A DNA stretch of 64,000 nt. Origin: Bryobacteraceae bacterium. GTDB lineage: Bacteria > Acidobacteriota > Terriglobia > Bryobacterales > Bryobacteraceae. The position numbers and the translations under genes are program-made. This document shows, in pieces, positions 8,142-64,000 of the stretch (position 1 is its first letter; each line of letters begins with the position of its first letter). Under the pieces are notes generated by a model. That model was not told where the DNA came from, ran no database searches, and saw only the letters and a list, made by a program, of their open reading frames with translations. The DNA is taken from contig DASZIV010000114.1 of assembly GCA_035948775.1 (NCBI GenBank), positions 130,263-194,262 on the forward strand, read 5' to 3'.

Positions 8142-8195
8142 GCAGCCGGTCTGACGCCGAACGGGAGCGTCGTGACTTCGCGAAAGGGGGTGGGA

Positions 8196-11100
8196 ATGAA
8201 AAGCGTTTCCGCGAGTTTCCTGCTGATTGCGGGTATCGGCCTCTCGGCCTGTGTCTCCGTCTGGGGACAGGCTGCATCCACGGCGCAAATCAGCGGCACT
8301 GTTCGCGACTCTGGGGGGCTCTCGGTGCCGGGGGCACTGATTAAAGCGACGCAAACCAGCACGGGCCTGGTGCGAACGGCCACAAGCACCACCGAGGGCG
8401 GGTATGTGATTCCCAATCTACCCATCGGACCGTATCTGGTGGAGATCACCAAGGAAGGCTTCGCCAAGTACATACAATCGGGCATCGTGTTGCAAGTGGA
8501 TGGTAACCCGACCATTGACGCCGCCTTGAAGGTCGGCACGCAGAGCGAACAGGTGGTGGTGCAGGCGGACGCCGCCATGCTGGAAACCCACAGTACCGGA
8601 GTTGGCACGGTAGTGGACCAGCAGCGGGTGGTTGACCTGCCGTTGAACGGCCGCGAGGCGACCCAGCTCATCTATTTGGCGGGCATGGCGACGACCGGCA
8701 ACGGCACCAACCTAAACACCATCCGGAATTACCCCACCCAACTGATCTCGGTGGCCGGCGGGCAGGGGAACGGCGTGACCTATCTTCTGGACGGCGGGAC
8801 GCACAACGATGTGATGAACAATCTCAACCTGCCTTTGCCGTTCCCGGACGCGCTGCAGGAGTTCAAGGTAGAGAGCAGCGCGCTTCCGGCCCAGTACGGA
8901 CTGCATGCCTCGGCAGCCATCAATGCCGTCACCAAGTCGGGAAGCAACGAACTGCATGGCGATGTATTCGAGTTCTTCCGCAACGGGGATCTGAACGCCC
9001 GGGACTATTTCGCCTCCTCCCGCGACACTCTAAAACGCAACCAGTTTGGTGGAACGGTGGGCGGGCCGATTCTGAAGAACAAGCTGTTCTACTTCGTCGG
9101 CTATCAGGGCACCATCATCAAATCGACGCCACCCCAAACCATTGCGTTCGTTCCCACCGCTGCGGAACTAGTGGGAAATTTCGTAGCCGCTGCCGCGCCT
9201 GCCTGCAACACCGGAAGGCAGATCAACCTGCCGGCGTCGCTGGGCTTCGTGGGCAATCAGATTTCCCCAGCGGCGTTGAGCTCCGTGGCGTTGAAAATCA
9301 GCAGCCTGTTGCCCGTCACCACGGACCCCTGCGGCAGAGTCACATACGGCATCCTGGGCAACAGCAACGAACATATCGGGGTAGCCAGAGCGGACTACCA
9401 AGTGACCGCGAAACACTCGTTCTTTGGCCGTTTGGTGATTGCCGATCTGGAAGGGCCGGGCGCTTATGACGGAAAGAATGCGTTGACGTTTAATAACGCT
9501 GCTACTTTGGATCGCGACGCGGCGGTGGTGTTGGGAGATACGTACGTGATCGGCGCCAACTCGGTCAACTCCTTCCGCGCCACAGTGACGCGAACGCGCG
9601 TGGAGAAGACGTCCGATCAGTTCTATTCCTGGGCAGCGCTAGGAGTCTCCACCATTACGCAACTGGTACCATACTTTGCACGGGTGACGGTTTCGGGCGC
9701 CGGCTTTGCGTTCGGCTCCGCTAACGAAACCCCGAGTAAGTTCAATACGGGCCCGACCCTCCAGTTCGGAGACGACTTCAGTCTGGTCCGAGGGTCGCAC
9801 CAGATCGGATTCGGCGCGAATTATATCCACGAACTGATGAATCTGAAATCCGGACTGAACACACCGGGTGGATTTACGTTCAGCGGTCAAATCACCCAAT
9901 TATCGATGGCGGATTTTCTGTTGGGCGATGCGTCGGCGTTCGCACAGGGCGGCTTCTCATTGGGCTACAACCGGCAGAATTACATCGGACTCTACGTGCA
10001 GGATTCCTGGCGGCTCAGTTCCCGGCTGACACTGAACTACGGTCTGCGCTGGGAACCTTATATTGCGCCTTACAGCAAGTACGGATTGTTCTTGAATTTT
10101 AATCCTACGCTATTTGGGCAGAACGTTCACAGTACCGTTTACCCCAACACTCCCGCAGGGGTGATCTTTCCTGGCGATTCGCTATACACCGCAGGCAACG
10201 CTCCTGAGAATTCTACCTGGAGCCGGACGGTGCCGCGGGTCGGAGTCGTTTGGGATCCCACGGGCAGCGGGCGGATGACCATCCGCGCGGCCTATGGGAT
10301 GTTCACCGACCGCCAACATCTGTTCTACTTGGACGCGTTTGCCAACGACGCGCCCTACGGGAATAGCGTCACAACAGGTGCTGTGAGTTTTACTAATCCG
10401 TGGGCGACCATTCCCAACCCGTTCCCTTATGTCCTGACGAAGAACTCCGGGTTTCCGGTTGCGGCAGGCGTGGTGACTCACCAACTGAATGCCCAACCGA
10501 CTTACCTTCATCAATGGAACTTGAGTATCCAACGGCAAGTCGGGGCCAACTGGCTGCTGTCGGCAAATTATGTCGGGAACAGCACGATTCACCTGTGGAC
10601 AGGGAACCAGGAGAACCCGGCGGTTTACATTCCCGGCGCGAGCTGTGTCATTAACGGTATCACGTATAGTCCCTGTTCTTCTTTGACGAACACGAATCAG
10701 CGACGGGTCTTATATCTCCAAAACCCGGATCAAGGACGGTTTTTCGGATCGGTCCAACAGCAGGACACGGGAGGCACCGCAAGCTACGAAGCCTTGTACT
10801 TCTCAGTGTTGCGCAGGCTCAATCGTGGGGTGACCGTGCAGGCGAACTACACCTGGTCGCATTGCATCAGTGACCTGGAAAATACGGAGCTCGGCACAGC
10901 GGGGCCGCTATACATGGTGCCTTCGGAGCGTAGGGTGGACCGCAGTAACTGCGTCTTGTCTGACCAGAGACAGGTGGCGAACATTTCGCTGGTAGCCCAA
11001 ACGCCTCAGTTCTCGGGCCGAACGCTGCGCGCGTTGGCGAGCGACTGGCAGGCCTCGGCCATCATTAGCGCCAAATCGGCGCAATTCTTCACGGTGACTA

Positions 11101-54300: not shown

Positions 54301-54457
54301 TTTCGGGGAACACGGCCACGGGGATCGTGAGCGCCAGATAGATCCCCACGGCCACCAGAGTCAGGATGACGAAGATGATCGGCTTGCCGTGGCGATCGGT
54401 CCAGTGTACGGCCTCCGCTTCAGCCGCGACTGGTGGAGGAGTCAGCAGCTCGCTCAT
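51368..54457 (-). CDS. RND efflux transporter permease (AcrB/CzcA superfamily)
   Basis: 1029 aa with 12-TM RND architecture and 'VGLVIDDAIVVVENI'. 4-nt overlaps with the neighbouring genes. Confidence 0.9.
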   Translation of the reverse strand: MSELLTPPPVAAEAEAVHWTDRHGKPIIFVILTLVAVGIYLALTIPVAVFPETNFPRIVVAVDNGVVPIDQMMVTVTRPLEEALNTVQGLERIWSITSRGTAEIDLFFSWKGDMYRTLDLVNAAIARTLPSLPSTVKINAQRLTFAAFPVIGYSLTSDTVPQTRVWELANYELKPRLNRMPGVSTVVVQGGQQPEFQVTPDAAKLIQTATTIPNILDAIGRSNLIDSPGLISDNHQLVLSLVSGQARTPDQIANIVVKTTPAGAPVRIGDIGSVGPSVTPVYTVVTANTKPAVLLNIFRQPDGNTVEVANAVHQEIENLRSTLPKGIQLNAFYDQSEIVVASIKSVRDAILIGLILASLIMVLFLRDWGTSLVAGLVIPATVAVTFVGLRALGQTFNLMTLGGLAAAVGLVIDDAIVVVENIVLHRDSGQTRAQAIRSALREIRVPLIGSTITPIVVFLPLISITGVNGTFFRALALTVGMALLTSLALALTWTPTLSHYLIRSRGRARHAEHDAAPSRVMRIYERTLRMTLAHPLLLGLFAVALIAGSYFCYNAIGSDLLPEIDEGGFIVDYFTPAGSSLDETNRIIKHVEQILRTIPEVSSTARRTGLELGLAAVTEANRGDISVKLKQKRDRAGDEVIAEARAQVKKAEPVLDVEFVQLLGDMIGDLTSAPEPIAIKLFAQDPQTLRDWAPQVGDAIKKIPGVVDVLNGIENTISGPATVFQVDPAVTARAGFTPQEVELDASAILQGEPASAPVVLNDRAYTIRVRFPESTRASMDAVRNTPLVSATGRTGTLGSLATVTDLPGQTEIRRENLLRDVTVTGRLEGVNLGEGIRRVQAAVAALHLPPTIRVQYGGQYEEQQNSFRDFAFVLLLAIVLVFTVLLFEFGGFAAPIAVICSALLSTCGVFLALLITGKTFNLSSFMGLIMVIGIVSKNGILLLDADQKFRAEGLTPEESMIRAGERRLRPIMMTALATVAGMIPLALALGAGSEMLQPLAIAVIGGILASMILSLVVTPAVHYYLGGRT

Positions 54458-55773
54458 TTGTCGTCCTTGTCGCCCTTATCGCTTTTGCCGCCTTTTTCGT
54501 CCTTGTCGTCTTTGTCGGGCTTCTCGGCTTCGCCCGGCTTGACGATCTTCACCTTCGCCTTGTCGTCGAGCCCGACGCCTCCCACCACCACTACTTGCTC
54601 TCCCGGCGTGACGCCGCTGATGATCTGGACTTTGTCGGCCTCGCGCACACCCACCTCAACCTTGCGCTGGTGCACAATGTTGTCGGCAGTCACCACCAGC
54701 ACTATGGTTCCGCCCTCTTCTCCCGACAGCAGCGCAGCCGTAGGGACGACTACCGCATTGGGGATGGTCGCGGCCACAATCGCGACGTGTACGCCGGTGC
54801 CCGGCTTCAGGCGCTCGCCCGGATTATCGGCCTGCACCCAGACTTGGACGGTGGTGCTGCTGGGATCGGTGGCGGGGCTAACCACTGTAACCTTGCCTTG
54901 CACTGCGAGGGAGGTATCGGTCTGGGTCAGCGTGGCCGAGGCGCCCACTTTCAGGGCGCCCGCCTGATTCTGCGGGACGTTGGCGCGCGCAATCACGCGC
55001 GAGATATCCATCACGGTCATGAGCGGCGTGCCCGGATTCGCCATTTCGCCGGCGTACAGGGGGCGGTCGGCGATGACACCGCCGATGGGGGCTCGCACTT
55101 CGGAGTAGCCCAACTGTGCCTGGGAGGATTGATAGTGCCCACGGGCCGCTTCCACCTGGGCCTGTGCGCCTTTGACCTGTTCCTCTTTGCCGACGCTCTG
55201 GAGAACGCGCAGGTGTTCCTGGGCCGAGGCGAACTGGGCGCTTGCCTGGGCGTAGGCCACCTGGGCATCGTCCACCAGCTTGCGGGCCAGCGCACCCTGT
55301 TCTAATAGCTTCTGGCGGTTCGCCAGCAACTTCTGCGCGGCGTCCAAGGTCTGCTGGGCCGATTGCACATCGGTCTGCGCCTTGATCACCTGTTCCGGAA
55401 TCGTGGCCGATGACGTCGCACGGAAGTTGGATTCGGCCTGGTCGAGCTGCCCTTTGCTCTCGGCCACGGCTGCCGACAGGTCACGGCTCTCAAGCGTTGC
55501 CAGCAGTTGCCCGGCCTTAACATGGTCGCCGCGATTCACATAGAATTTCTGCACCGGCGCGCTGATCTTGGGCATCGTGCCGGACTGGTCCAGCGGGTAC
55601 AGCACGCCGTCAGCCTCCACCACGCGCCGAATCGATTCCTGGCGCACCGGCTCGACTTGCACGGGGGCAGCTTCGGGAGCGGCGTTGTCGGCTTCGTCGG
55701 CTTTCTTGGAGCAGCCGGACAGGGCCAAGAGGTACAGGGCGATGAGCCACGTCAATGAACTGGTTCTCCGCAT
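54454..55773 (-). CDS. RND efflux periplasmic adaptor (MFP/HlyD family) with K/D-rich C-terminal tail
   Basis: Lipobox 'LSGCS', coiled-coil hairpin, beta-barrel 'VEVGVREADKVQIISGVTPGEQVVV', and tail 'KPDKDDKDEKGGKSDKGDKDDK'. Confidence 0.9.
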   Translation of the reverse strand: MRRTSSLTWLIALYLLALSGCSKKADEADNAAPEAAPVQVEPVRQESIRRVVEADGVLYPLDQSGTMPKISAPVQKFYVNRGDHVKAGQLLATLESRDLSAAVAESKGQLDQAESNFRATSSATIPEQVIKAQTDVQSAQQTLDAAQKLLANRQKLLEQGALARKLVDDAQVAYAQASAQFASAQEHLRVLQSVGKEEQVKGAQAQVEAARGHYQSSQAQLGYSEVRAPIGGVIADRPLYAGEMANPGTPLMTVMDISRVIARANVPQNQAGALKVGASATLTQTDTSLAVQGKVTVVSPATDPSSTTVQVWVQADNPGERLKPGTGVHVAIVAATIPNAVVVPTAALLSGEEGGTIVLVVTADNIVHQRKVEVGVREADKVQIISGVTPGEQVVVVGGVGLDDKAKVKIVKPGEAEKPDKDDKDEKGGKSDKGDKDDK

Positions 55774-55780
55774 ATATTGC

Positions 55781-57088
55781 CTAAAACGTTCCCGTCAACG
55801 TCTGCAGATTGGCGATGGCCGCGCGATAGCGCACCAGCCCGTCGTCGGCCGCGTTGCGCGCCTGCACCAACGTGGTCTGCGCATCTTTCACTTCGAGGAC
55901 GGTCACTTCCCCCGCCTGGTAGCGCAGCAACGTCAGCCGTAAGCTCTCGTTGGAAAGATCGAGGGAGCGCCGCAAGGAGGCAATCTGCATGCTGGCGAGA
56001 TCAGCCTCCCGATACAAAGAATTCAGATTGGCGAGCAGCTCGCGCTGAGTAAGACTCAGGTCGGTTTGCGCCTGCTTCAGACGCAGCTCCGATTGCCGGA
56101 TCTTGCTGCGCGTGGCGCCCCAGTTCCATACGGGAATGTTGAGCGTGGCCTGCACCGCCGAGCCGAGTTGGTTTTGACCGTCGCGGTTGTGCAGGGCGTA
56201 TTGATTCGCCTCGATGCCGAAGAAATAGTCCAGCGACAATGTGGGGTACAAAGCGCTGCGCGCGCTCTTGATTTCAAATTCCTGTTGTTGCACGGTGGCC
56301 ATGGCGGCGCGGATGTCAGGATTATTCGTGCTGGCCATCGATTGGACGCGCTGGAAATCGGGGAGCGCCGTGGCCGTTTCCAGGTCATCGGCAACCGTGA
56401 AGTCTTGCCGAAACTCCGGAAACACCAGGACCGCCAGGCCGAGCCGCGCCTTCTGCTCCGCCAGCAGCGCATCCTGCGTATCGCGCCGCCGCTGCTCCAC
56501 CAGAATTTGGGCCGTCACCACGTCGGAGTGAGCCACTTCACCACCCTGCTCCTGCTTCTGGGTAATATCGAGGAACTGCTCAGCCTCGCGCTGGTTTTGT
56601 TGCGCGTTGGCATACTTGCGCGCGGCCGTGACTAGCGCGTAGTAGTCCTGAACCACAGTGGCATACAGGCCGCGAGCCGCGATATCGGCCTTGGCGCGCG
56701 CCACTGCCTCGGCCGCTTCGGCGCGGTGATAATCAGCACGTTTGCCGGGCGCGAACAGATCGCCATGGACATTGGCCGTGTTGTAGTACACGTGCGGACC
56801 GTCATTGGGCACGAACACGCCGCTGAGCGTTCCGTTCGGCTGCGTGTAAATGAACTGGTTGAACCAGTTGGCAGTGGGCAGTAGCGCAGCCTTTGCCTGC
56901 ACTGTGTCTTCGTGGGCGATCTGGGCCGCGTTGGTTGCGGCGAGCAGCGTCTGGGCATTGGCGCGGGCCCGCTCCAGGGCATCCTGCAGCGTCAGTTGCA
57001 GACTCGCATTCGGGGCGGGCGGCGCCTGCGCGTGCGCGACGCCACACAACCAGAGGCCCATGCCGGCAATCAGAGAAAGAAACCGCAT
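55781..57088 (-). CDS. TolC-family outer membrane efflux protein
   Basis: Signal peptide and two OEP repeats ('LQDALERARANAQTLLAA...', 'RSALYPTLSLDY...'). Confidence 0.85.
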   Translation of the reverse strand: MRFLSLIAGMGLWLCGVAHAQAPPAPNASLQLTLQDALERARANAQTLLAATNAAQIAHEDTVQAKAALLPTANWFNQFIYTQPNGTLSGVFVPNDGPHVYYNTANVHGDLFAPGKRADYHRAEAAEAVARAKADIAARGLYATVVQDYYALVTAARKYANAQQNQREAEQFLDITQKQEQGGEVAHSDVVTAQILVEQRRRDTQDALLAEQKARLGLAVLVFPEFRQDFTVADDLETATALPDFQRVQSMASTNNPDIRAAMATVQQQEFEIKSARSALYPTLSLDYFFGIEANQYALHNRDGQNQLGSAVQATLNIPVWNWGATRSKIRQSELRLKQAQTDLSLTQRELLANLNSLYREADLASMQIASLRRSLDLSNESLRLTLLRYQAGEVTVLEVKDAQTTLVQARNAADDGLVRYRAAIANLQTLTGTF

Positions 57089-57164
57089 CAGAAGAAGTTT
57101 AGTATAAACGCGGCGAAATGAACGCAGGATGAACGGGAGCCGCGAGATACAGGCTCGAAATGCG

Positions 57165-57965
57165 TCACCGCACGACCAATCCCTGCCCCGTCGGCAACGA
57201 CAGCACCTCCGCCCTTAACTCGCGTACTGTCTCGTCAATCTTCTCCTTCTGATACCGGTGCTCGTGATTCGCGTAATCGTCAAATAGCACCAGCGCGCCT
57301 GGAGAGAGCCGCGGCCAGAAATGCATAAGCGCGGCGCACTCCGGATACGCGCTATTCATATCAATGTGCAGAAAAGCCACGCGCGGGATCTCCAACGTGG
57401 CCAGGATCTCGGGAACTGGGCCGCGGACGATCACCGCGTTCGGCCACTCCGCGAAGTTCGCACGCACGCGTTTCACGTCCGTCACGTAGGAGCCCCGCTC
57501 GAGCAGTTCTTTCGTCAGGCCGGCCTTTCCCTGCTTCAGTTCCTCCGCTGAAAATTGTTCCACCACTGGCCCCGAAAAAGTATCGATCAGATAGAATTTG
57601 CGCGGCACGCCCGCCCAATCGAGGCAGTGCATGATGGCGGAGCTGACGAACCCAGCGTTGACCCCGCACTCGACGAAATCGCCAGGACTCCGCAAGGCAG
57701 TAGCAGCGGCCCATAGAGCCACATGAACGCGCCACTCCATGCCGGGGTCGACGCCCCAACTCGCTTGGATGCCCCGCGTGTACGCCTTCCGAAACTGGGG
57801 ATCACGCCGGAAGTCGGCGTTGTGCACGGTGAACAGGCCATCCTGGGCGTAATGCCGCTTCACATCAAAACGGAGACAACCGATGCGCGCTAATGCGGGG
57901 TCCAGCACGCGCCGGATTCTGGTTCGCACGCGTTTGGGGAGAAACGTCGCCAGCCTGCCCATCAT
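57165..57965 (-). CDS. TylF/MycF-like class I SAM-dependent methyltransferase
   Basis: 'GDFVECGVNAGFVSS', 'FYLIDTFSG', 'VAFLHIDMNSAYPECAALMHFWPRLSPGALVLFDDY'. Confidence 0.75.
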   Translation of the reverse strand: MMGRLATFLPKRVRTRIRRVLDPALARIGCLRFDVKRHYAQDGLFTVHNADFRRDPQFRKAYTRGIQASWGVDPGMEWRVHVALWAAATALRSPGDFVECGVNAGFVSSAIMHCLDWAGVPRKFYLIDTFSGPVVEQFSAEELKQGKAGLTKELLERGSYVTDVKRVRANFAEWPNAVIVRGPVPEILATLEIPRVAFLHIDMNSAYPECAALMHFWPRLSPGALVLFDDYANHEHRYQKEKIDETVRELRAEVLSLPTGQGLVVR

Positions 57966-57989
57966 CTGCGCAGCCGGTCCGCCGTGCTG

Positions 57990-58064
57990 TCACAAGAGGG
58001 CATAGTAGTCCTGTACCGCGGTGGCGAACAGGCCGAGACCTGTAATCACAAAAAGGACCCGCAT
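57990..58064 (-). pseudogene. 24-codon remnant resembling a TolC-family gene (signal-peptide start fused to an internal segment)
   Basis: MRVLFVITGLGLFATAVQDYYALL*. Compare 'MRFLSLIAGMGLW' and 'LYATVVQDYYAL' in the TolC gene at 55781-57088. DNA similarity to 56636-56680 is visible by eye. Confidence 0.35.
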
Positions 58065-58318
58065 CGAGAAAGCCAGTATATAGAATTGGCGGAAGAAACG
58101 GTGGGGTAGGCGTTAGATTGCCGAAAACAGAGCGGGCTCAAGCATGCCCCACCGCTAGAGGTACTAGGAAAATTCTCGGTGTTGGCCTGCAAGAAAAGCA
58201 TCGCAAAGAAAGCACCTCCGTGTATACTCTCTGCTATTCTCAGTCATTCGGAGTCCCGGAAATAGAGGGCTGGGCGAATAATTCAAGCAAGCGATGAATC
58301 CCAAAAGGAGTAAGTGAC

Positions 58319-59419
58319 TTGAGTATGGTGGCGATGGTGCTGACTGTGTTGAGCGTGCTCTTGGCGAGCGTCAGCATCTGGTTCGGATTGTGTCTCGCGA
58401 TGCAGAACGGGCGACTCCTGATTCGGATCGAGTCTCTCGAAGCCATCCTGTTTGCGAAGCCGGGCAGCATTGGCCTGGCGCCTGGGTCCACGCTGGGTGA
58501 CTTCTCTCTTCCTCTCGTCAGCAGCGGCGGCACCATGACACTGTCGCAATGGCGAGGCAAGAAAGTCGTGCTGATCTTCACTCGCCTCGGGTGCCACCAC
58601 TCCGAGCAGATGTTGCCACAGTTGAGCGTTGCCTTGGCAAACGCAAAGCCTGGCGGCCCGGTTCCGTTGGTCATCTCAATGGGCGATCTGGCCGGGAGCC
58701 AGCGATTATTCGAACGCCATCCGATCACCTGCCCCGTGCTTTCCGATGAGGAATCCGAAACGGTCCGGCACTACCGTGTGGCCGTCACACCGATGGCCTT
58801 GGTAGTGGACGAACGAGGCGCGGTCGAAGGCAACGTGGTGATCGGAACGGCGGCAATTCTTGACCTGTTTCGTGAGGGAACGGCCCGTGGCGAGCAGTCA
58901 GCCGAAGACTACTCGAAGGTCTCCTCTTCCTTGTCGCGCAGCAAGCTCGTGCGGGACGGGCTGAAGGCAGGCACCACGGCTCCGGAGTTCCGTTTGCCCA
59001 CTCTCACAGACGGACAGGATATTGCGCTCGCCGACTTGCAAGGCCGGCCGCTGCTCCTGGTGTTTTCGGATCCCAATTGCGGGCCCTGCCAGCAACTGGC
59101 TCCCAAGCTCGAAGAGGTACACCAAAGTTCGCCCGATCTACAGCTCGTCATGATCAGCCGCGGCGACCGCGACGTGAATCGGGAGAAAGCTACCAAAGGC
59201 GGCGTGACTTTTCCTGTGGCGTTACAGGCCCATTGGGAAGTTTCGAAGGCTTATGGCATGTTCGCCACACCAAGCGGGTATTTGGTGGATGAACATGGCG
59301 TTCTGGCCAGCGATGTGGCAGTGGGCGGAGATGCCATTCTCCGTCTGGTGGCGCAACGCCAGGCTGGCGGAAGTCAACCAGGGGCGGAGCCGCAGGTTCC
59401 GGCCGCACTGAACACATAG
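58319..59419 (+). CDS. membrane-anchored protein with two TlpA/ResA-like thioredoxin-fold domains (MauD-like N-terminus; CxxS + CxxC)
   Basis: RBS 'aaggag' lies 8 nt before TTG 58319. TM segment 'MVLTVLSVLLASVSIWFGLCLAM' is followed by 'QNGRLLIRIESLE'. Domain 1 has 'VVLIFTRLGCHHSEQMLPQL'. Domain 2 has 'LLLVFSDPNCGPCQQLAPKL' and 'FATPSGYLVDEHG'. Confidence 0.8.
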   Translation: MSMVAMVLTVLSVLLASVSIWFGLCLAMQNGRLLIRIESLEAILFAKPGSIGLAPGSTLGDFSLPLVSSGGTMTLSQWRGKKVVLIFTRLGCHHSEQMLPQLSVALANAKPGGPVPLVISMGDLAGSQRLFERHPITCPVLSDEESETVRHYRVAVTPMALVVDERGAVEGNVVIGTAAILDLFREGTARGEQSAEDYSKVSSSLSRSKLVRDGLKAGTTAPEFRLPTLTDGQDIALADLQGRPLLLVFSDPNCGPCQQLAPKLEEVHQSSPDLQLVMISRGDRDVNREKATKGGVTFPVALQAHWEVSKAYGMFATPSGYLVDEHGVLASDVAVGGDAILRLVAQRQAGGSQPGAEPQVPAALNT

Positions 59420-59447
59420 ACCAACCAAAAAGGGACTGGGCAAAAAA

Positions 59448-59756
59448 ATGAACAAGACGCTTGATGATTTCGCAAAGGGTTTGGCGAGTGGCATGTCGCG
59501 CCGTAGCGCTTTCTTGAAACTTTTGGGGGGAGCGGGAGCTCTCGGATTTCTAAGTCTTCGGCAAGCGAAGGCCGGGGCGAAGCTTCCTAAGCTTAAGTTT
59601 CCGAAGGATCCTGCCCAGTGCGAGAGTTTCTGTCTGAACTATGCGGACGAGGTCTATCTTGAGTGCGCCTTCGGCTCCAAAAAGGAGAATGCCTGCTTCG
59701 AACTGCAGAATCTCACCTATTTAGAATGCACGTACGAGTGTACGAATCGGCCGTAA
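59448..59756 (+). CDS. Tat-signal cysteine-rich mini-protein, paralogue 1 (102 aa, 6 Cys)
   Basis: 'MSRRSAFLKLLGGAGALGFLSLRQAKA' twin-arginine signal. The mature part follows C-x3-C-x10-C-x9-C-x10-C-x3-C. Confidence 0.8.
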   Translation: MNKTLDDFAKGLASGMSRRSAFLKLLGGAGALGFLSLRQAKAGAKLPKLKFPKDPAQCESFCLNYADEVYLECAFGSKKENACFELQNLTYLECTYECTNRP

Positions 59757-59924
59757 CGAGCGGCATTAGTTAAACAACACTGCGTCTGGCTACCGATGTG
59801 GCCGTGGAGGAGACGCGATTCTCCACCGGGTGGCGCAATCCCGACCTGGTGGAGCTTACCTGGGGCGGAGTCGTGAGTTTCTACCGCGCCGAACACAAAA
59901 CCAACTAAAGAAAGGGAGTAGAAA

Positions 59925-60218
59925 ATGAACAAGACGATTGATGATTTCTCAAAGAGTTTAGCGGGCGGCATGTCGCGCCGCGGCGCTTTCTTGAAGCTTC
60001 TGGGGGGCGCGGGAGTCCTGGGATTTCTAGGTGTGCAGAAAGCCAAGGCGAGCGAGTTCCCCAAGAATAAAGCCCTGTGCTCGAGTTACTGCCTTAACCT
60101 CGCGGATGAGGAATATCTCTTCTGCATGCTTTGCAACCCAAAGGATCAGAACGAATGTTTCGAACAACAGAATATCGACTATTTAAAATGCGCGTACGAG
60201 TGCGCGAATAGCAAGTAA
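59925..60218 (+). CDS. Tat-signal cysteine-rich mini-protein, paralogue 2 (97 aa, 7 Cys)
   Basis: RBS 'gggag'. 'MSRRGAFLKLLGGAGVLGFLGVQKAKA'. Same 6-Cys core plus one extra Cys. Confidence 0.8.
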   Translation: MNKTIDDFSKSLAGGMSRRGAFLKLLGGAGVLGFLGVQKAKASEFPKNKALCSSYCLNLADEEYLFCMLCNPKDQNECFEQQNIDYLKCAYECANSK

Positions 60219-60235
60219 AAGCCGACACTAGAAAA

Positions 60236-60333
60236 GCGGGGCAGGCTTCAGCCTGCAGGGGGCTTTAGCCCCGGTGTTGTAGCCGCTTGCCGGAGCGGGG
60301 CTGAAGCCCCGCGCAGGCTGAAGCCTGCCCCAC
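60236..60333 (+). repeat. REP-like four-hairpin repeat, copy B (between mini-protein genes 2 and 3)
   Basis: gcggggc-[gcaggcTTCAgcctgc]-a-[ggggcTTTAgcccc]-spacer-[gcggggcTGAAgccccgc]-[gcaggcTGAAgcctgc]-cccac. Confidence 0.85.
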
Positions 60334-60365
60334 AGCAACCTGGGCAAACCAAAAGGACGAGACAA

Positions 60366-60701
60366 ATGGACAAAACGCTGGACGATTTCTCAAAGAGTTT
60401 GGCCGGAAGTATGTCCCGGCGTAGCGCGTTTTTGAAACTCCTGGCTGGAGCAGGAGCGTTCGGATTTCTAGGACTGCGGAAAACGAAGGCCGGGACGTCC
60501 AAGCCTCCCAAGTTCGTATTTCCGAAAAATCCCGCGCTGTGCGAGAGTTACTGCTTGACCTACGCGGATGAAGTGTATTTAGAGTGCGCCTTCAACAAAC
60601 CGAAGGAGGCCAGCCTGTGCTTCGAAAAACAGAACCTTGCTTATCTAGACTGTATGTACGAGTGTGAGTGCTATACCAGCAAGACGTGCGACCTCGGGTG
60701 A
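60366..60701 (+). CDS. Tat-signal cysteine-rich mini-protein, paralogue 3 (111 aa, 8 Cys)
   Basis: RBS 'aagga'. 'MSRRSAFLKLLAGAGAFGFLGLRKTKA'. Same 6-Cys core plus the 'CECYTSKTC' tail. Confidence 0.8.
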   Translation: MDKTLDDFSKSLAGSMSRRSAFLKLLAGAGAFGFLGLRKTKAGTSKPPKFVFPKNPALCESYCLTYADEVYLECAFNKPKEASLCFEKQNLAYLDCMYECECYTSKTCDLG

Positions 60702-60903
60702 GCAGGCCGCTGTGCAGTCGCAGGACCAGGGCCAGCCTCACCTGGCCGGCCCACTTCCCTCCTATTCCATCTAAGACCTATTTCTCCCCGCCACGTCCAC
60801 TAATAGAATGGTCCCGCCGCAGCGCTGGCGGAACCTGTTCCGAGTACCACCAATCCGGCCGTTTTGTCCTGATGCAAAGTTAGTTGATTGCGGCTCAAAC
60901 ATC

Positions 60904-61017
60904 GCCGGACTAATCCTTTCGGTGAAACAGGGTGGAGACAGTACCAGTTTATGACCTTGCAAACGGGTGAAAGACGGACTAACCCTTTTGGACGAGGCAC
61001 TATGGAGACTATACCGG
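60904..61017 (+). promoter_or_regulatory. imperfect ~45-bp direct repeat pair upstream of the 8-Cys protein gene (possible regulator binding region)
   Basis: 60904-60947 'gccggactaatcctttcgg...ggagacagtaccag' versus 60973-61017 'gacggactaacccttttgg...ggagactataccgg'. The units start 69 nt apart. Function is inferred only. Confidence 0.3.
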
Positions 61018-61058
61018 CTACTGCCGTCATGTTACTTTGCAAATCGGAGGATTTGAGA

Positions 61059-61664
61059 ATGCGTAAGTTTTTCCAACTAATGATGGGCGTAGCACTGCTC
61101 TCGACGGCAGCCCTCGCTCAAGGAATTGGCCCCGATGATGCGCTGCAGGTGCGGTATGCCGCTAACCTGGGAGCGGGTCAATCGGTGATCGACATGACGA
61201 ACGTGGGAACGCAGGGCGGGAATGACGCTACTGACTACATCTGCGCGAACGTGTATGTGTTCGCCCAGGATCAACAGCTCATTTCGTGCTGCACCTGCCC
61301 GTTGAGCCCCAACGATCTGAAGACGCTGTCCGTTCAGAACGATCTCATCAACAACACGCTGACTCCTGGCGTGCCGACTGGCGTGACCATCGCGCTGGTT
61401 GCTACTGACGATTCTGGCCCCGCGACCTGCAATGCCGCCGTTCCGGGCTCTTTGGTTTCCGGTCTGCGCGCTTGGGGTACCACTCTCCATGCTGCACCGG
61501 GTGGTGGGTTCTTCGGAACCGAGACTGCTTTCTCTCATGCTCCCCTGAGCATCTCGGAATACGGCAAGATGACTGGCTTCTGCGCCTTCATCCAAGCCGA
61601 TGGTAGCAAGTTCGGTATCTGCAATTCCTGCTCGCCGGGTGCGGCTGGCGCCCAGAAGCAGTAA
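61059..61664 (+). CDS. secreted 201-aa cysteine-rich protein (8 Cys), unknown family
   Basis: RBS 'ggagg' lies 8 nt before the ATG at 61059. Sec signal 'MRKFFQLMMGVALLSTAALAQG'. Cys clusters 'SCCTCP' and 'CNSCSP'. The upstream extension of the track ORF has no signal peptide and spans the direct repeats. Confidence 0.75.
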   Translation: MRKFFQLMMGVALLSTAALAQGIGPDDALQVRYAANLGAGQSVIDMTNVGTQGGNDATDYICANVYVFAQDQQLISCCTCPLSPNDLKTLSVQNDLINNTLTPGVPTGVTIALVATDDSGPATCNAAVPGSLVSGLRAWGTTLHAAPGGGFFGTETAFSHAPLSISEYGKMTGFCAFIQADGSKFGICNSCSPGAAGAQKQ

Positions 61665-61693
61665 CACTGTAGTTTGGTAACATGTCAAACCTT

Positions 61694-61736
61694 ATCGGGT
61701 AGCCGGCCGAAACGCCGGTTACCCGATTAGTTTTTT
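61694..61736 (+). terminator. rho-independent terminator closing the 58319-61664 gene string
   Basis: A 14-bp stem atcgggtagccggc/gccggttacccgat (one G-U pair) with a 6-nt loop, followed by 'tagtttttt'. Confidence 0.8.
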
Positions 61737-61832
61737 GCCCCCTCCGATTTCCACTAATCTCTCAAACAGAGTCTTTTCTCCAGCCGGAGCTACGACTGAT
61801 CAACTAAAAGTACCGCTCCCGTTGGTAGGCAT

Positions 61833-61929
61833 GTGGGGCAGGGTTCAGCCTGGAGGGGCTTTAGCCCCGGTTTTGTAGTCGCTTGCCGGAGCGGGGCTGA
61901 AGCCCCGCGCAGGGTGAACGCTGCCCCAC
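61833..61929 (+). repeat. REP-like four-hairpin repeat, copy C
   Basis: gtggggc-[agggTTCAgcct]-...-[ggggcTTTAgcccc]-spacer-[gcggggcTGAAgccccgc]-...-ctgccccac. It ends 7 nt from the stop of the minus-strand gene at 61937. Confidence 0.85.
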
Positions 61930-61936
61930 AACAACT

Positions 61937-63193
61937 CTACCTTCCCAGCGAGGAACAATCGTAGGAGAGTTCCTTGTCCGGCGCAAACAGTACACCGGTC
62001 TGTTTAATAGCCAGCTTCGCTTCCGAAGGATCATGTGCATAGGCACAAATATATCGCGCAAGATTCTTGTAGATCCGTGGTTCGGGGTAAAAGGGAACGT
62101 TGAGTTCGCTTATGGACCACTCCATTAACTTTATGGCGTTGGTACCAGGTTTGTCCGTCACGTATACGTGCTGCAAGATATATTTTGGCAAACGGTCGGC
62201 CAGGGAATTCGTTACGTAGATGCTGGGGGTGTTTCTTGTCCCGGAATAGAGGGCCGAGGATAAGTATCCGTCCCACAGATTGAAGAAACTCAAGACTGGC
62301 GCGAGCGCAAAGAGCAACAAGATCACTTTCTGATAGCGCCCTCCGTCAGACCATACGATTTCGCGGGCAGATAGTCTCGGCCGCTGCCAGAAGAGGGTCG
62401 TCACGAAACAAAGCATGGCAACGTTCCATGGCCACACGACGCTGTTCCAGTCCTTGCCTAGCGGGCCAATGGCCCACAGAATGAAAGCATGCATTCCGAA
62501 AGCGGCGAAAATCGCCCAAGTCCGGAACCGGCGTGTCAGCAGGCCGATTCCGATGCCTGCCTCAATGAAGGGGGCCACCATCGCCAGCCAGTTGAAGCCC
62601 GGCACGATGGAAGCGGGGAGCAGGTGCGTGATCGGCTTCGTAAGCTCGTGGAAGACATAAGTCCGGAAACCCGGTTGTAGCTTCTGCAGGCCGCTCCAGA
62701 AATAAGTGCAGGCCACGGCAAGGCGACACGCGTTCAGCGCCGGGTTATGGATGTCATCATGGCCGCCCCGCGAGTAGTCATATAGGCCCAAAGCAATGAG
62801 CATTACCAAATACTGATAGAACCACGGCTGCCAGCGCGACTGATCCAACAGTGCAAGGGCGATTGCGAATAGGGAAAACAATCCGATTAACTTGGCGGGT
62901 CGGGTAACCACCGCTATGGCCGCCAACATGGCCAAGACCACTGCGAAGATCAGATGATCGAGGGGAACCGGAATCGATAGGGAGAACGGCCACACCGGAG
63001 TGGCCGGATAAGAGCGGTCACTCAGCCAAAGCGCAGGCGAGAGCACCATGCCGGCGAATAAGCCGCCTACGATGATGATCTTCAAGCGGCGTTCTGTCGC
63101 CGAAGGCCGGGTAAACTCTTGCTTAGGGAGCTCCGCCGCAGCCCTGGTGGGCTTCTTGCTAAGTGGTAAGTTCTTGGTTAATGGTGAGCCCAT
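61937..63193 (-). CDS. 9-TM integral membrane protein with DoxX/MauE/HTTM-like helix motif and a ~110-aa C-terminal soluble domain
   Basis: Hydrophobicity pattern. 'ACTYFWSGLQKLQPGF' resembles the conserved G-x-x-K helix of DoxX/MauE/HTTM-type membrane proteins. The family assignment is tentative. Confidence 0.7.
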   Translation of the reverse strand: MGSPLTKNLPLSKKPTRAAAELPKQEFTRPSATERRLKIIIVGGLFAGMVLSPALWLSDRSYPATPVWPFSLSIPVPLDHLIFAVVLAMLAAIAVVTRPAKLIGLFSLFAIALALLDQSRWQPWFYQYLVMLIALGLYDYSRGGHDDIHNPALNACRLAVACTYFWSGLQKLQPGFRTYVFHELTKPITHLLPASIVPGFNWLAMVAPFIEAGIGIGLLTRRFRTWAIFAAFGMHAFILWAIGPLGKDWNSVVWPWNVAMLCFVTTLFWQRPRLSAREIVWSDGGRYQKVILLLFALAPVLSFFNLWDGYLSSALYSGTRNTPSIYVTNSLADRLPKYILQHVYVTDKPGTNAIKLMEWSISELNVPFYPEPRIYKNLARYICAYAHDPSEAKLAIKQTGVLFAPDKELSYDCSSLGR

Positions 63194-63300
63194 GCAGGAC
63201 CGGATGGATCTACTTCCCTCTTATACAGCACGAGCCTTGTTTATTGGATGGGTAAACGGCTTGGGAAGTAACAGAACCGGTGGTACTTGACTCGTGCTGT

Positions 63301-63388
63301 GTGGGGCGGGCTTCAGCCCGCGGCGGACTTTAGTCCGCCATCCGAACCAGCGGGACTGAAGTCCCGCGCAGGCTAAAGCCCGCCCCAC
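63301..63388 (+). repeat. REP-like four-hairpin repeat, copy D
   Basis: gtggggc-[gcgggcTTCAgcccgc]-g-[gcggacTTTAgtccgc]-spacer-[gcgggacTGAAgtcccgc]-[gcaggcTAAAgcccgc]-cccac. It ends 7 nt from the stop of the kinase gene. Confidence 0.85.
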
Positions 63389-63395
63389 AAGAACC

Positions 63396-64000
63396 TTACT
63401 TAGTCCGCTGTAGATGCACCGTAAACGTGCTGCCCTGACCTGGCTGGCTGGCCAACTCAACCGCACCGTGGTGCGATTCGGCGATCCACTTGACGATCGA
63501 TAGGCCGAGGCCGAAGCCGCCTTCCTGGCGCGAGCGGGCCTTGTCGGCGCGGTAGAACCGTTCGAAGACGTGCAGTGAAGCCTCAGGCGCAATGCCGATT
63601 CCCGTATCGGCCACCTGTATCCGGATTTCCGAGCCCTGTGTTTCCACTCCGGCGGATACGCGGCCGCCGGGCGGTGTGTAGCGAATGGCATTGTCCAGAA
63701 GGTTCAGGATCATGCGCCGTAGTAGCTCCTCGTCGCCGCGCACGGTCACGTCGTGGCTCGAGTGACACTCCAGTTCGATATTGCGCGCGGCGGCCAGGGG
63801 ACGCACGGATCGACAGCACTCGGCCAACAGATCGTTCAGATACAGCTCTTCCACACGCAGTTGGACGTGGCCTGCATCGGCGCTCGCCAGGTTCAACAGG
63901 TCGGCCACCAGGCGCGCCAGTCGCCGCGATTCGTCTTGAATGTTCGCCAGCGATTCCTTATATTCCGCGGCGCTGCGCTCGCGAGAGAGCGCCACGTCCG
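63396..64000 (-). CDS. sensor histidine kinase, C-terminal part (5' end outside the window)
   Basis: 'LLNLA' at the end of HisKA. HATPase_c N-box 'LLDNAIRYTPPGG', G1 'VADTGIGI', 'FERFYRAD', G2 'GGFGLGLSIV'. The frame stays open to the window edge. Confidence 0.85.
   Translation of the reverse strand, partial: DVALSRERSAAEYKESLANIQDESRRLARLVADLLNLASADAGHVQLRVEELYLNDLLAECCRSVRPLAAARNIELECHSSHDVTVRGDEELLRRMILNLLDNAIRYTPPGGRVSAGVETQGSEIRIQVADTGIGIAPEASLHVFERFYRADKARSRQEGGFGLGLSIVKWIAESHHGAVELASQPGQGSTFTVHLQRTK

Follow-up and report, generated by a model that had tools for sequence, protein, structure and literature searches.

A double-thioredoxin protein and cysteine-rich mini-proteins with MauA-like leaders as a probable two-part oxidative-folding cassette in a Bryobacteraceae bacterium

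The question raised by this locus is whether a membrane-anchored thioredoxin-fold protein, three small cysteine-rich proteins and their neighbours constitute a dedicated folding system, and which of the genes belong to it. A first-pass annotation of the window (the whole 64-kb stretch of DNA analysed here) had proposed a six-gene module. The sequence features that it described are confirmed: five plus-strand open reading frames (ORFs), a terminator-like hairpin and a convergent ORF of 418 codons. The core is nevertheless made of two parts and not of six genes, namely the double thioredoxin (dblTrx) and the three paralogous mini-proteins A, B and C (Table 1). The hairpin that ends the gene row spans 61694-61727 (14-bp stem with nine G-C pairs, loop of 6, tail TAGTTTTTTG), and a hairpin repeat of ~100 nt separates the genes of mini-proteins B and C.

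Table 1 Features of the locus, in window coordinates
Feature	Position	Strand	Remarks
TylF-like methyltransferase, divergent	57165-57965	-	266 aa; Pfam TylF 5.8e-11
dblTrx, membrane-anchored tandem thioredoxin-fold protein	58319-59419	+	366 aa, TTG start
Mini-protein A	59448-59756	+	102 aa
Mini-protein B	59925-60218	+	97 aa; paralogue, same leader as A
Mini-protein C	60366-60701	+	111 aa; paralogue, same leader as A
8-Cys protein, Sec-signal	61059-61664	+	201 aa from ATG MRKFF
Intrinsic-terminator-like hairpin and T-run, end of the plus-strand gene row	61694-61737	+	
Polytopic membrane protein of 418 aa, convergent	61937-63193	-	marginal MauE/DoxX similarity

The dblTrx protein presents a single N-terminal hydrophobic segment (aa 4-22) as its transmembrane (TM) anchor and two Pfam AhpC-TSA/Redoxin stretches, in agreement with its earlier description as a TM-anchored protein with two TlpA/ResA-like thioredoxin folds. 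The active site of domain 1 is C-H-H-S (aa 92-95, nt 58592-58603), the resolving cysteine being lost (CxxS) in this branch, and that of domain 2 is C-G-P-C (aa 254-257, nt 59078-59089). The nearest PDB sequences are ResA/TlpA-like extracytoplasmic oxidoreductases. Among NCBIfam models, ResA (1.4e-23) and MauD (2e-15) both score under cut-off, and P. denitrificans MauD aligns with domain 2 at 30% identity (BLASTP, E 5e-11). A juxtamembrane motif (MQNGRLLIRIESLE, aa 28-41) follows the anchor; in the family, whose motifs were taken from 46 homologues, it reads Q-N-G-R-L-L-x-R, while the anchor of MauD is followed by R-Q-V-G-L-L-H-E-R, such that Q-x-G-x-L-x-x-R is common to both. The dN/dS of dblTrx orthologues is 0.23.

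The mini-proteins B and C are 64-70% identical to A, and the invariant, symmetric cysteine pattern noted in the first reading holds in all three, with six cysteines at a spacing of 3-10-9/10-10-3. Mini-protein B has one additional cysteine, and mini-protein C has two more in a C-terminal tail (CECYTSKTCDLG). All are under purifying selection (dN/dS 0.15-0.38); in L011, the orthologues of B (84% identity) and C (91% identity) have dN/dS values of 0.38 and 0.26, respectively. In NCBI, the sequence of B is entered as a hypothetical protein from a Bryobacteraceae MAG. In mini-protein A, the leader (aa 1-42, nt 59448-59573, MNKTLDDFAKGLASGMSRRSAFLKLLGGAGALGFLSLRQAKA) precedes a mature domain of 60 residues (nt 59574-59753), for which AF2 predicts a helix-loop-helix (helices 13-33 and 38-57, pLDDT 89.6). 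Its cysteines 16, 20, 31, 41, 52 and 56 (mature numbering) lie on one helical face, and the pairs 16+56, 20+52 and 31+41 each sum to 72. In the predicted hairpin the six residues would thus stand in perfect antiparallel register, exact for three nested disulfides. Mini-protein A has no match in Pfam, NCBIfam or PDB. Large secreted proteins with a Sec signal and with PKD or dockerin-like parts do contain the same 6-Cys hairpin, as 4-16 tandem modules joined by Pro-rich linkers, an architecture typical of disulfide-stabilised extracellular modules. The nearest functional analogues of the mature hairpins would be disulfide-stapled hairpin peptides such as glycocins.

The leader is the more conserved half of the molecule, with a mean identity within the window's peptide family of 72%, compared with 36% for the mature part. 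Its n-region, L-D-D-F-S-K-x-L-A-x3-S-R-R, ends in a twin-arginine motif that has no occurrence in the 64-kb window outside the mini-proteins. The curated Tat models TIGR01409 and PF10518 do not report the window mini-proteins, their best score being 16.3 bits against a cut-off of 16.7, on the leader of a relative. Of 21 known Tat leaders, 19 receive a positive score from an HMM of the leader, with MauA at the top (21.2 bits), and the median on 103 MauA leaders is 20.7 bits. Aligned by hhalign with a MauA-leader profile, the leader gives 96.1% probability (E 3e-9) over 39 columns, n-region included; the alignment with a generic Tat profile reaches 88% across 24 columns and begins only at SRR, and the reversed control gives 1.2%. 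The n-region by itself contributes modestly (9.0 bits for MauA versus 6.9 for the runner-up among known Tat leaders). These profile comparisons indicate a leader that is Tat-type and resembles that of MauA.

To survey the cassette elsewhere, 80 loci were fetched with dblTrx alone as query from Acidobacteriota, Planctomycetota, Chloroflexota, Actinomycetota and others. A leader-bearing Cys-rich ORF, detected with the leader HMM, adjoins dblTrx in 53 of 69 loci (L012-L080), a count that is partly circular, since a regular expression of our own made the initial choice of the ORFs behind the HMM. Position and strand are free of this circularity: with flanks of up to 6 kb, none of the 70 leader ORFs of L012-L081 is more than 2.5 kb away from the thioredoxin gene, the median gap is 98 nt, and the strand is shared in 69 cases. 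In the window's own family, dblTrx is beside the peptide in every context with sequence flanking the peptide gene (the window, JGI contig 3300050821, L001-3, L004-6, L007/8, L010 and L101). The cassette occurs in at least six bacterial phyla, and several Planctomycetota have two or three thioredoxin-client pairs per genome. The proposed co-occurrence of thioredoxin and peptides is thus maintained across phyla and is more widespread than was first seen, which supports a conserved functional unit, as judged from gene order. The mature domains of the clients are unrelated, contain from 4 to 126 cysteines, and are Stig1/MXAN_6577-like, CC-rich or hairpins; some reach a cysteine density of 15-20%, and a Planctomycetota client (L017) has a stretch of Asp and another of ~17 His. 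As far as sequence goes, clients are defined by leader and Cys-richness rather than by fold. The earlier remark that the locus fits no RiPP or bacteriocin layout holds in this window, but a co-operonic GT2 glycosyltransferase in sister loci brings glycocins into view. Homologues of mauE and mauD beside Cys-rich precursors had already been raised by decRiPPter in Streptomyces (PMC7794033). The two-part cassette itself is apparently undescribed.

The mau analogy proposed at the outset emerges stronger than it was put, through the MauA-like leader, the MauD-like anchor, motif and domain 2, the mauD-mauA gene order and MauE fusions. The MauD/MauA pair belongs to the maturation of methylamine dehydrogenase; P. 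denitrificans has the gene order mauE-mauD-mauA, and the cassette likewise has thioredoxin then client. In L069-L080 a MauE domain is fused to this thioredoxin family, in the order MauE, fifth TM, QNGRLLVRL motif and thioredoxin domains, with an active site CHCFG or CNCFG (CXC-F-G) between TM3 and TM4. Leader-bearing Cys-rich neighbours stand beside five of these fusions. In E. coli, MauE complements dsbB, for which it requires its periplasmic CXC (preprint 10.64898/2026.03.05.709764). The extra TM of the fusions, taken with the periplasmic MauE CXC, therefore sets the thioredoxin domains on the periplasmic side of the membrane, and a periplasmic location of the dblTrx domains would rest on this argument from the fusions. 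The window itself contains no MauE with a CXC motif.

The neighbours outside the core behave differently. In the 8-Cys protein all eight cysteines are invariant among 70 homologues; it has no match in Pfam or NCBIfam, is predicted by AF2 as a beta-sandwich with a C-terminal helix (pLDDT 86.9), and finds TM1070 as its best PDB match (E 7e-4). Its inclusion in the core is not supported. The family recurs near peptide loci in three cases; two copies lie upstream of dblTrx in L001 and one is 7.3 kb off in L100. It numbers at least 441 clusters versus 21 for the peptide family, is not in the remaining cassette loci, and in three of three other contexts is found with no cassette. It is a recurrent, non-obligate neighbour outside the core, and possibly an additional client. 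For the 418-aa protein, the claimed DoxX/MauE likeness is marginal: over aa 152-243, Pfam MauE scores 29.1 bits (cut-off 27) and DoxX 22.4 bits (under the cut-off of 23.6). A crude hydropathy scan gives seven clear hydrophobic segments versus the nine TM helices of the first reading, and no PDB relative is found by sequence. Its cysteines (156, 162, 262, 383 and 413) form no CXC motif, the active site by which a functional MauE is defined (preprint 10.64898/2026.03.05.709764), and no homologue occurs in ~90 related loci; its place in the module is not supported. The TylF-like methyltransferase keeps the same arrangement in the closest relative, JGI contig 3300050821, and was not found in any other related locus.

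Four other explanations have to be weighed. That all six genes (thioredoxin, three peptides, 8-Cys protein and MauE/DoxX/HTTM-like membrane protein) form one module is suggested by their closeness in the window, by the marginal MauE match and by the 8-Cys homologues of L001 and L100. We regard it as quite improbable given the solitary, CXC-less 418-aa protein, an 8-Cys family that exceeds the peptide family ~20-fold and usually lies elsewhere, and a gap of 357 nt ahead of the 8-Cys gene. Strongly disfavoured, and the least credible of all, is the absence of any dedicated link, with dblTrx serving the periplasm as a general oxidoreductase and the small ORFs being unrelated or not genes: nothing specific speaks for it, and the tight same-strand adjacency across phyla, the several copies per genome, the purifying selection on the peptides and their invariant cysteines speak against it.

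More serious, though still unlikely, is that dblTrx acts as a TlpA-like reductant that keeps client cysteines reduced, and that the clients bind Cu(I), Zn or another thiophilic metal, Tat being used since metal is loaded or the fold formed in the cytoplasm. TlpA/ResA-like enzymes with CGPC motifs are classically reductants, which counts against oxidation; the Tat-exported copper storage protein Csp1, and TlpA acting on ScoI/CoxB, are parallels. The CGPC motif and ResA/TlpA-like relatives, the Tat-type leader, the Asp- and His-rich L017 client and the densest clients all suit this explanation, and a metal-lined dimer core would likewise be compatible with cysteines on one helical face. Against it stand the tandem hairpins of Sec-signal secreted proteins, the STIG1-like domains of many clients (in plants, these are extracellular and disulfide-rich), the fusion of the thioredoxin family to MauE, an oxidase, and not to CcdA/DsbD, and a cysteine register exact for three disulfides; nor do metal transport or resistance genes recur beside the cassette in related loci. 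A little less probable again is quality control at the cytoplasmic face, where the thioredoxin domains would bind the leader n-region and oxidise or hold cargo before Tat export, dblTrx being a Tat proofreading chaperone with redox activity that acts, in sister loci, after cytoplasmic glycosylation. Under the positive-inside rule, an N-terminus of dblTrx devoid of charge and the R-x-x-x-R that comes after its TM are consistent with an N-out/C-in topology and would favour a cytoplasmic thioredoxin. So strong a conservation of the n-region implies that something binds it specifically, and the co-operonic GT2, dependent on nucleotide sugars, must work in the cytoplasm. Tat cargo, moreover, is normally folded, which sits awkwardly with periplasmic disulfide folding, most of all for relatives with 84-126 cysteines. 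On the other side, the extra TM of the fusions puts the thioredoxin with the periplasmic CXC loop, relatives with solved structures are extracytoplasmic, and no cytoplasmic oxidant partner is evident.

We consider it probable, on balance, that this locus encodes an oxidative-folding cassette of the MauD/MauA type, dedicated to exported disulfide-rich proteins. The mini-proteins would be made with a 42-residue Tat-type leader, whose MauA-like n-region may couple client to foldase, and would be exported, presumably by Tat, before the leader is cut after A-K-A. The mature domain of ~55-70 residues would then be locked as a hairpin by nested disulfides, which we infer to be C1-C6, C2-C5 and C3-C4. 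These would be put in or shuffled by the dblTrx encoded upstream, anchored in the inner membrane and facing the periplasm, with its CGPC domain as the redox-active site, while domain 1 probably holds or isomerises clients via mixed disulfides. Electrons would flow in the direction of oxidation rather than reduction, and a quinone-linked, DsbB-like MauE, with its gene at another place in the genome, may recycle dblTrx in trans. By this analogy, the cassette resembles the MauD/MauA pair in a generalised form.

The five plus-strand open reading frames, the terminator and the convergent 418-aa reading frame of the locus were found where the first-pass annotation had placed them, with the features it had ascribed to them (table). 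The first gene encodes dblTrx, a membrane-anchored tandem thioredoxin, and is followed by the genes of three small proteins, peptides A, B and C. Identity to the first small protein is 64-70% for the other two, and all three have in common a 42-residue N-terminal region with the S-R-R-x-A-F-L-K motif and six cysteines spaced 3-10-9/10-10-3. The dN/dS ratios of 0.26-0.38 against the orthologues in L011, a related locus in another genome, and of 0.15-0.32 among the three window paralogues argue that the small reading frames are real genes. In family HMM searches dblTrx and the 418-aa protein match known families, while peptides A-C and the 201-aa protein with eight cysteines (8-Cys protein) have no match in Pfam, NCBIfam or PADLOC. 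The PADLOC models of anti-phage defence were matched by none of the seven locus proteins.

Features of the window and of related loci in other genomes or contigs.
Feature	Locus	Coordinates	Strand	Remark
HlyD/MFP-like adaptor and TolC-like factor	window	54454-57088	-	439 aa and 435 aa
dblTrx ORF, 366 aa	window	58319-59419	+	
Three small ORFs (peptides A, B, C)	window	59448-59756, 59925-60218, 60366-60701	+	
Palindromic element, ~100 nt	window	60237-60337, 61834-61934	+	two copies
201-aa ORF (8-Cys protein)	window	61059-61664	+	counted from ATG at 61059
Terminator-like site with T-run	window	61694-61727		region's best; after the row of + strand ORFs
418-aa ORF	window	61937-63193	-	convergent
Weak hairpin match (Rfam)	window	63302-63387		
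Histidine kinase, C-terminal part	window	63396-63995	-	cut by window end
dblTrx and peptides	JGI contig			TylF-like gene, dblTrx, three peptides
dblTrx and peptides	L001-3			dblTrx, three peptides
dblTrx and peptide	L004-6, L010			dblTrx divergent from single peptide
dblTrx and peptides	L007/8			dblTrx N-terminus at contig end
dblTrx and peptides	L101			dblTrx, three peptides
GT2 glycosyltransferase	L004	6569-8581		
GT2 glycosyltransferase	L010	318-1064		
GT2 glycosyltransferase	L012	~7431-9529		
GT2 glycosyltransferase	L013	7489-8265		
GT2 glycosyltransferase	L014	1549-5559		
GT2 glycosyltransferase	L015	~7368-8145		
GT2 glycosyltransferase	L018	6034-6810		
Wzy_C protein	L041	7848-10616		
Wzy_C protein	L045	8308-10887		
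Wzy_C protein	L061	4406-5722		
Wzy_C protein	L066	84-1265		
MauE-thioredoxin fusion	L069	644-2728		also L070-L076, L078-L080
Client	L017	7152-7604		Asp run, then ~17 His
Client	L040	2065-3390		441 aa, 84 Cys
Client	L050	2973-5249		758 aa, 126 Cys, 14 STIG1-like stretches
ECF sigma factor (PF07638) and Ser/Thr kinase	L036, L038	1944-2732, 1513-5835		examples from Planctomycetota

Several other features lie within or beside the locus. The palindromic element has long-hairpin potential and is present in two copies of 90% identity, one separating the genes of peptides B and C and the other just past the terminator; it resembles a repeat of the REP/MITE type. Rfam over 57000-64000 returned solely sub-threshold miRNA-hairpin matches on this element, together with one further weak hairpin match. 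The upstream genes of a periplasmic adaptor and an outer-membrane factor on the minus strand, assigned by sequence appearance, probably belong to an efflux or secretion system. A HATPase-like histidine kinase fragment adjoins the 418-aa gene.

Comparison across genomes retained one part of the grouping originally drawn, the pairing of dblTrx with leader-bearing Cys-rich genes, and dropped another, as the 418-aa membrane protein occurs in no other locus. The peptides belong to a rare family (21 clusters in 5.8 billion proteins, no Pfam domain, one NCBI copy from a Bryobacteraceae MAG), and dblTrx adjoins the peptide gene or genes in every context with available sequence beside the peptide gene. 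A GTDB scan with one genome per species, queried with an alignment of four dblTrx orthologues, returned 80 loci. The matches of full length belong to Acidobacteriota (Blastocatellia among them), Planctomycetota, Chloroflexota, Actinomycetota, a Deltaproteobacteria MAG and Candidatus Kapaibacterium, and Planctomycetota genomes often have several matches each. At most of the 80 loci the thioredoxin gene is directly adjoined by an ORF whose N-terminal leader is of the same kind; we call the products of such genes clients, and dblTrx together with its clients the cassette. With flanks of 6 kb covered on each side, none of the 70 leader ORFs of L012-L081 is more than 2.5 kb away from the thioredoxin gene (median gap 98 nt); 69 are on its strand and 54 downstream of it. 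A leader HMM matched 53 of the 69 loci L012-L080, a count that is partly circular because the HMM was seeded with ORFs chosen by a purpose-written regular expression; the position and strand statistics are independent of this choice. Scanned with the peptide profile, GTDB yielded 273 pattern matches, of which none was confirmed, and unbiased clustering of neighbour ORFs returned no further universal partner of the cassette. Planctomycetota genomes have two or three cassettes each, with 1-3 clients of 170-280 aa and 20-43 Cys per cassette, and often the genes upstream encode an ECF sigma factor and a WD40/TPR-repeat Ser/Thr kinase of 1000-1440 aa.

The mature parts of the clients are mutually unrelated yet always Cys-rich, with 4-126 cysteines. 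They comprise STIG1/MXAN_6577-like repeats (Planctomycetota, Chloroflexota), CC-rich proteins, a protein with Asp/His runs and the helical hairpins of the window family; the three clients listed individually in the table all have the same RR leader. Within the window peptide family, mean pairwise identity is 72% for the leader and 36% for the mature part. A conserved leader on a variable cargo is the pattern expected if a partner reads the leader.

An AlphaFold2 model of peptide A, built on a 24-sequence alignment, predicts a helix-loop-helix (helices 13-33 and 38-57, pLDDT 89.6). Cysteines 16, 20 and 31 of the mature part fall on helix 1 and cysteines 41, 52 and 56 on helix 2, those of each predicted helix being confined to a 60-degree arc. 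The pairs 16+56, 20+52 and 31+41 each sum to 72, which is exactly the register that three nested disulfides bridging an antiparallel hairpin require; this pairing is read from the register of the cysteines in the sequence, not from model coordinates. Foldseek found no match to the hairpin model in the PDB at E <= 0.001, as a two-helix hairpin is too simple, and searching PDB sequences with the peptide profile yielded chance matches only. Copper storage proteins (Csp1), Tat-exported four-helix bundles with a Cys-lined core, were also compared; the predicted fold differs from theirs, being a two-helix hairpin without a PDB sequence or fold match. The three peptides are not MauA: they have no Pfam or NCBIfam match, and the window client would be a helical hairpin of 55-70 residues in place of the MauA beta-subunit (PF02975). 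Being slightly acidic, the mature domain of peptide A does not stand out as a cationic antimicrobial. When 1.84 billion representatives were searched with a profile, the six-Cys module turned up again in large secreted proteins, which have 4-16 tandem modules, Pro-rich (PPPP-type) linkers, Sec-type signals and PKD or dockerin-like parts (P0145, P0148-P0154, P0156, P0159 and others; up to 1201 aa, with the dockerin-like part C-terminal). No Pfam or NCBIfam family covers this repeat, matches being limited to weak 'Thionin' ones. The tandem secreted forms suggest that the six-Cys hairpin is a disulfide-stabilised extracellular module.

The pattern of the hairpin recalls that of plant alpha-hairpinins and of the mitochondrial twin-CX3C/CX9C (CHCH) proteins, in which disulfides join CX3C-type motifs on the facing helices of an antiparallel hairpin. 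In CHCH proteins oxidation follows translocation and is carried out by a dedicated relay, Mia40/Erv1. The likeness is one of pattern only, with no significant Foldseek match in the PDB, and the window hairpin differs by a third predicted disulfide near the loop (C-x3-C-x10-C / C-x10-C-x3-C).

The window leader runs from S-R-R-S-A-F-L-K through a G/A-rich h-region to LRQAKA, and so combines the features of a Tat signal: an S/T-R-R-x-F-L-K-like motif, a weakly hydrophobic h-region, a basic c-region and an A-x-A cleavage site. The curated Tat models do not match the window peptides (cut-offs of 16.7 bits for TIGR01409 and 22.7 bits for PF10518); a relative scores 16.3 and 17.1 bits. Across phyla the cassette leader has the consensus MSKRLDELSKSLASGVSRREALRRLGAALAGAVLGPLG, to be compared with the leader MLGNFRFDDMVEKLSRRVAGQTSRRSVIGKLG of Paracoccus denitrificans MauA, and the LDDFSK of its n-region has the equivalent FDDMVEKLSRRVA in that protein. 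Both are long RR leaders with an n-region of the form (F/L)-D-x-(L/F)...(S/T)-(K/R)-x-(V/L)-A-x2-3-(S/T)-R-R and a basic residue followed by L-G, whereas a 4-residue insertion sets the MauA leader apart. The leader HMM gave positive scores (2.3-19.5 bits) to 19 of 21 known Tat leaders other than MauA; P. denitrificans MauA, at 21.2 bits, came top among the 22, and 103 MauA leaders had a median of 20.7 bits. In hhalign the leader aligned with a MauA-leader profile at 96.1% (E 3e-9) over 39 columns that include the n-region, and with a generic Tat profile at 88% over 24 columns starting at SRR; a reversed control gave 1.2%. It is these scores and alignments that lead us to class the cassette leaders as Tat-type and, beyond that, as MauA-like, the signal of the n-region alone being modest (9.0 bits for MauA versus 6.9 for the next-best known Tat leader).

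The thioredoxin partner points to the same system. dblTrx has a single N-terminal hydrophobic anchor (TM, aa 4-22) and two AhpC-TSA/Redoxin stretches, and its NCBIfam matches to ResA and MauD are both sub-threshold. We rejected its identification as MauD itself, as it scores 56.7 bits (E 2e-15) against an equivalog cut-off of 188.6 bits for TIGR02661; by sequence comparison it is a paralogous relative of MauD. The N-terminal half of dblTrx is built like MauD, with an uncharged N-terminus, a TM and then a juxtamembrane Q-x-G-x-L-x-x-R motif (MQNGRLLIRIE in the window, MRQVGLLHER in MauD), and its second domain, a thioredoxin fold with CGPC, is 30% identical to MauD (E 5e-11). The juxtamembrane segment is conserved as (R/M)QNGR(I/L)L(L/I)R(L/I)E across 46 dblTrx homologues. 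In both systems a membrane-anchored thioredoxin-fold gene lies directly upstream of a Cys-rich exported client, the order in the P. denitrificans mau cluster being mauE-mauD-mauA. dblTrx differs from MauD in having two thioredoxin folds instead of one. The first of these has CG(F/Y)C in most family members and CxxS in the branch of the window, which suggests a holding or isomerase role there.

A connection to MauE is provided by gene fusions. According to a recent preprint, MauE proteins of two phyla can stand in for DsbB in E. coli, and MauE requires a periplasmic CXC followed by F-G between TM3 and TM4; most MauE lies outside mau clusters, as it does in Solibacter usitatus, and in 8.2% of MauE entries a thioredoxin-family domain is fused to it (10.64898/2026.03.05.709764). 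The weaker dblTrx matches of L069-L080 (Thermomicrobiales, Actinomycetota, Janthinobacterium) are such MauE-thioredoxin fusions. They consist of a MauE core, a fifth TM, the QNGRLL-type motif GQNGRLLVRLDKVE and two or three thioredoxin folds (CGPC, CGFC). In the core, which scores 101.9 bits in L069, D-C-H-C-F-G lies between TM3 and TM4, the corresponding sequence in Janthinobacterium being C-N-C-F-G. Five fusions have a leader-bearing Cys-rich neighbour, for example one of 352 aa with 58 Cys in L079. The existence of the fusions argues that the dblTrx family works with MauE. The window cassette lacks MauE in cis as well as the TTQ machinery (MauG, MauB) of mau clusters; the 64-kb window contains no multi-TM ORF with a CXC-F/Y/W-G motif. 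The oxidase partner, if any, is encoded elsewhere in the genome.

We consider it probable, with some reserve, that the cassette, of the same type as MauD/MauA, consists of a dedicated thiol-disulfide oxidoreductase and its cognate clients. The peptides would be exported via the RR leader and the leader cleaved after A-K-A; the membrane-anchored dblTrx would then form or shuffle the three disulfides in the periplasm, and MauE, acting in trans, would recycle dblTrx. That dblTrx is instead a TlpA-like reductase serving metal-binding clients appears unlikely. Quite improbable, too, is a redox chaperone on the cytoplasmic face that acts ahead of Tat export: the positive-inside rule taken by itself suggests for dblTrx an orientation opposite to that of a periplasmic thioredoxin, but the extra TM of the fusions would put the thioredoxin domains on the periplasmic side, that of the CXC loop. 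A dedicated oxidoreductase of this kind would resemble DsbA/DsbB, DsbC and PDI in being a thioredoxin-fold catalyst presumably recycled by a quinone-linked membrane oxidase, and the two thioredoxin modules within dblTrx are reminiscent of PDI and of dimeric isomerases. Unlike these, dblTrx is membrane-anchored and of the AhpC/TSA-Redoxin (TlpA/ResA) subtype. Since it is encoded beside clients marked by a common leader, in several copies per genome, we regard it as a dedicated, not a general, catalyst; that thioredoxin and peptides have no dedicated relationship at all is scarcely credible.

The full six-gene system as first proposed, with the 8-Cys protein and the 418-aa membrane protein as members, is very unlikely. 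The 418-aa protein is a marginal match to Pfam MauE (29.1 bits, cut-off 27) and falls under the DoxX cut-off (22.4 versus 23.6 bits). In a functional DsbB-like MauE, the loop that joins TM3 to TM4 contains the CXC active site and, next to it, F-G (10.64898/2026.03.05.709764); the 418-aa protein has its cysteines at 156, 162, 262, 383 and 413 and no CXC anywhere, and was rejected as a functional MauE. Neither tblastn nor phmmer found a homologue in L001-L011 or L012-L091, a PDB sequence search gave no relative, and the gene is not co-located with thioredoxin and peptide genes outside the window. The want of conservation at related loci and of a CXC settles its status. Homologues of the window's TylF-like methyltransferase were likewise absent from the other loci, except for the contig of the closest relative (JGI). 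The case of the 8-Cys protein is more mixed. It has a Sec-like signal and eight Cys that are invariant across 70 homologues, and it recurs near cassettes, with two copies upstream of dblTrx in L001 and one 7.3 kb from the peptides in L100. But its family, with at least 441 clusters, is far larger than that of the peptides, and the cassette is absent from all three other contexts that were examined, so we treat it as a recurrent, lineage-specific neighbour and not as core; perhaps it is another client. Its model, a predicted beta-sandwich with a C-terminal helix (pLDDT 86.9), resembles only the TM1070 and ASRT-like folds, both of unknown function. Some members of the family (P0131, P0044, P0061, P0129) have ~320-350 aa, and P0131 adds PF25564/PF01345 (DUF11-type) domains; these longer members and extra domains suggest a surface or adhesin-like role.

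Glycocin clusters (sublancin 168, sunA-sunT-bdbA-sunS-bdbB; glycocin F, gcc) combine a hairpin with nested disulfides, a GT2 glycosyltransferase and thioredoxin genes. Sublancin and glycocin F use a double-glycine leader and an ABC exporter. The cassette shares with them the predicted helix-loop-helix with nested disulfides (AlphaFold2 and Cys register), a thioredoxin-family gene in the cluster and, in sister loci, a co-operonic GT2. In seven Acidobacteriota/Blastocatellia loci, among them the closest GTDB relatives of the window's dblTrx, the cassette is immediately followed downstream by a strongly conserved GT2 gene (phmmer E as low as 1e-150), and the peptides at these loci possess an additional C-terminal tail in which an (I/V)-N-(G/S/T)-like motif occurs. 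In contrast to glycocins, the cassette has an RR/Tat-type leader, no peptidase-ABC exporter among its neighbours and no immunity gene, its window hairpins would have three disulfides instead of two, and neither the 64-kb window nor L001 contains a GT2 orthologue. No sequence similarity between glycocins and the window peptides was detected. The peptides of the GT2 loci may be glycosylated, glycocin-like cousins of the window peptides, and glycosylation in the cytoplasm before export would give a reason for the use of Tat. In four Acidobacteriota loci the cassette is adjoined by Wzy_C (O-antigen-ligase-like) membrane proteins, two of which also have a CBM_4_9 domain and one of these two TPR repeats; they may be another glycan link of the cassette.

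The nearest prior idea is the decRiPPter observation in Streptomyces of mauE/mauD homologues outside mau clusters beside predicted precursors with at least 8 Cys; these homologues were proposed to modify the precursor, and the candidate families remain uncharacterised predictions (PMC7794033). Compared by description, the decRiPPter candidates belong to another phylum, and the passages on them mention no common leader, tandem thioredoxin or hairpin fold (PMC7794033). We found no published description of the present cassette in the literature. What is notable about it is its use in at least six phyla, the common leader, and the tension between Tat export and the disulfide-dependent folding of the clients.

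[quoted passage not shown] MauE is now described as a DsbB-like oxidase (2026 preprint, 10.64898/2026.03.05.709764). To this picture the cassette supplies a missing piece: a large family of MauD-like thioredoxins, each beside its own Cys-rich clients with a MauA-like leader. Two questions can now be tested: does the leader steer clients to the foldase, and how does a Tat-type leader go together with disulfide-dependent folding? Small disulfide-stapled hairpin scaffolds and a compact two-gene tool for making disulfide-rich proteins are of possible practical value. More tentatively, the leader n-region common to the cassette and MauA could be a recognition tag that couples RR-leader export to a MauE-recycled MauD-type foldase, in a leader-guided, client-specific disulfide relay of at least six phyla that would mature widely differing Cys-rich secreted proteins; we hold this to be possible rather than probable. 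If true, it would explain MauD's part in methylamine dehydrogenase biogenesis, and the three-disulfide hairpins of Bryobacteraceae would be a novel class of mini-proteins secreted by bacteria, whose cousins in sister loci are glycosylated.
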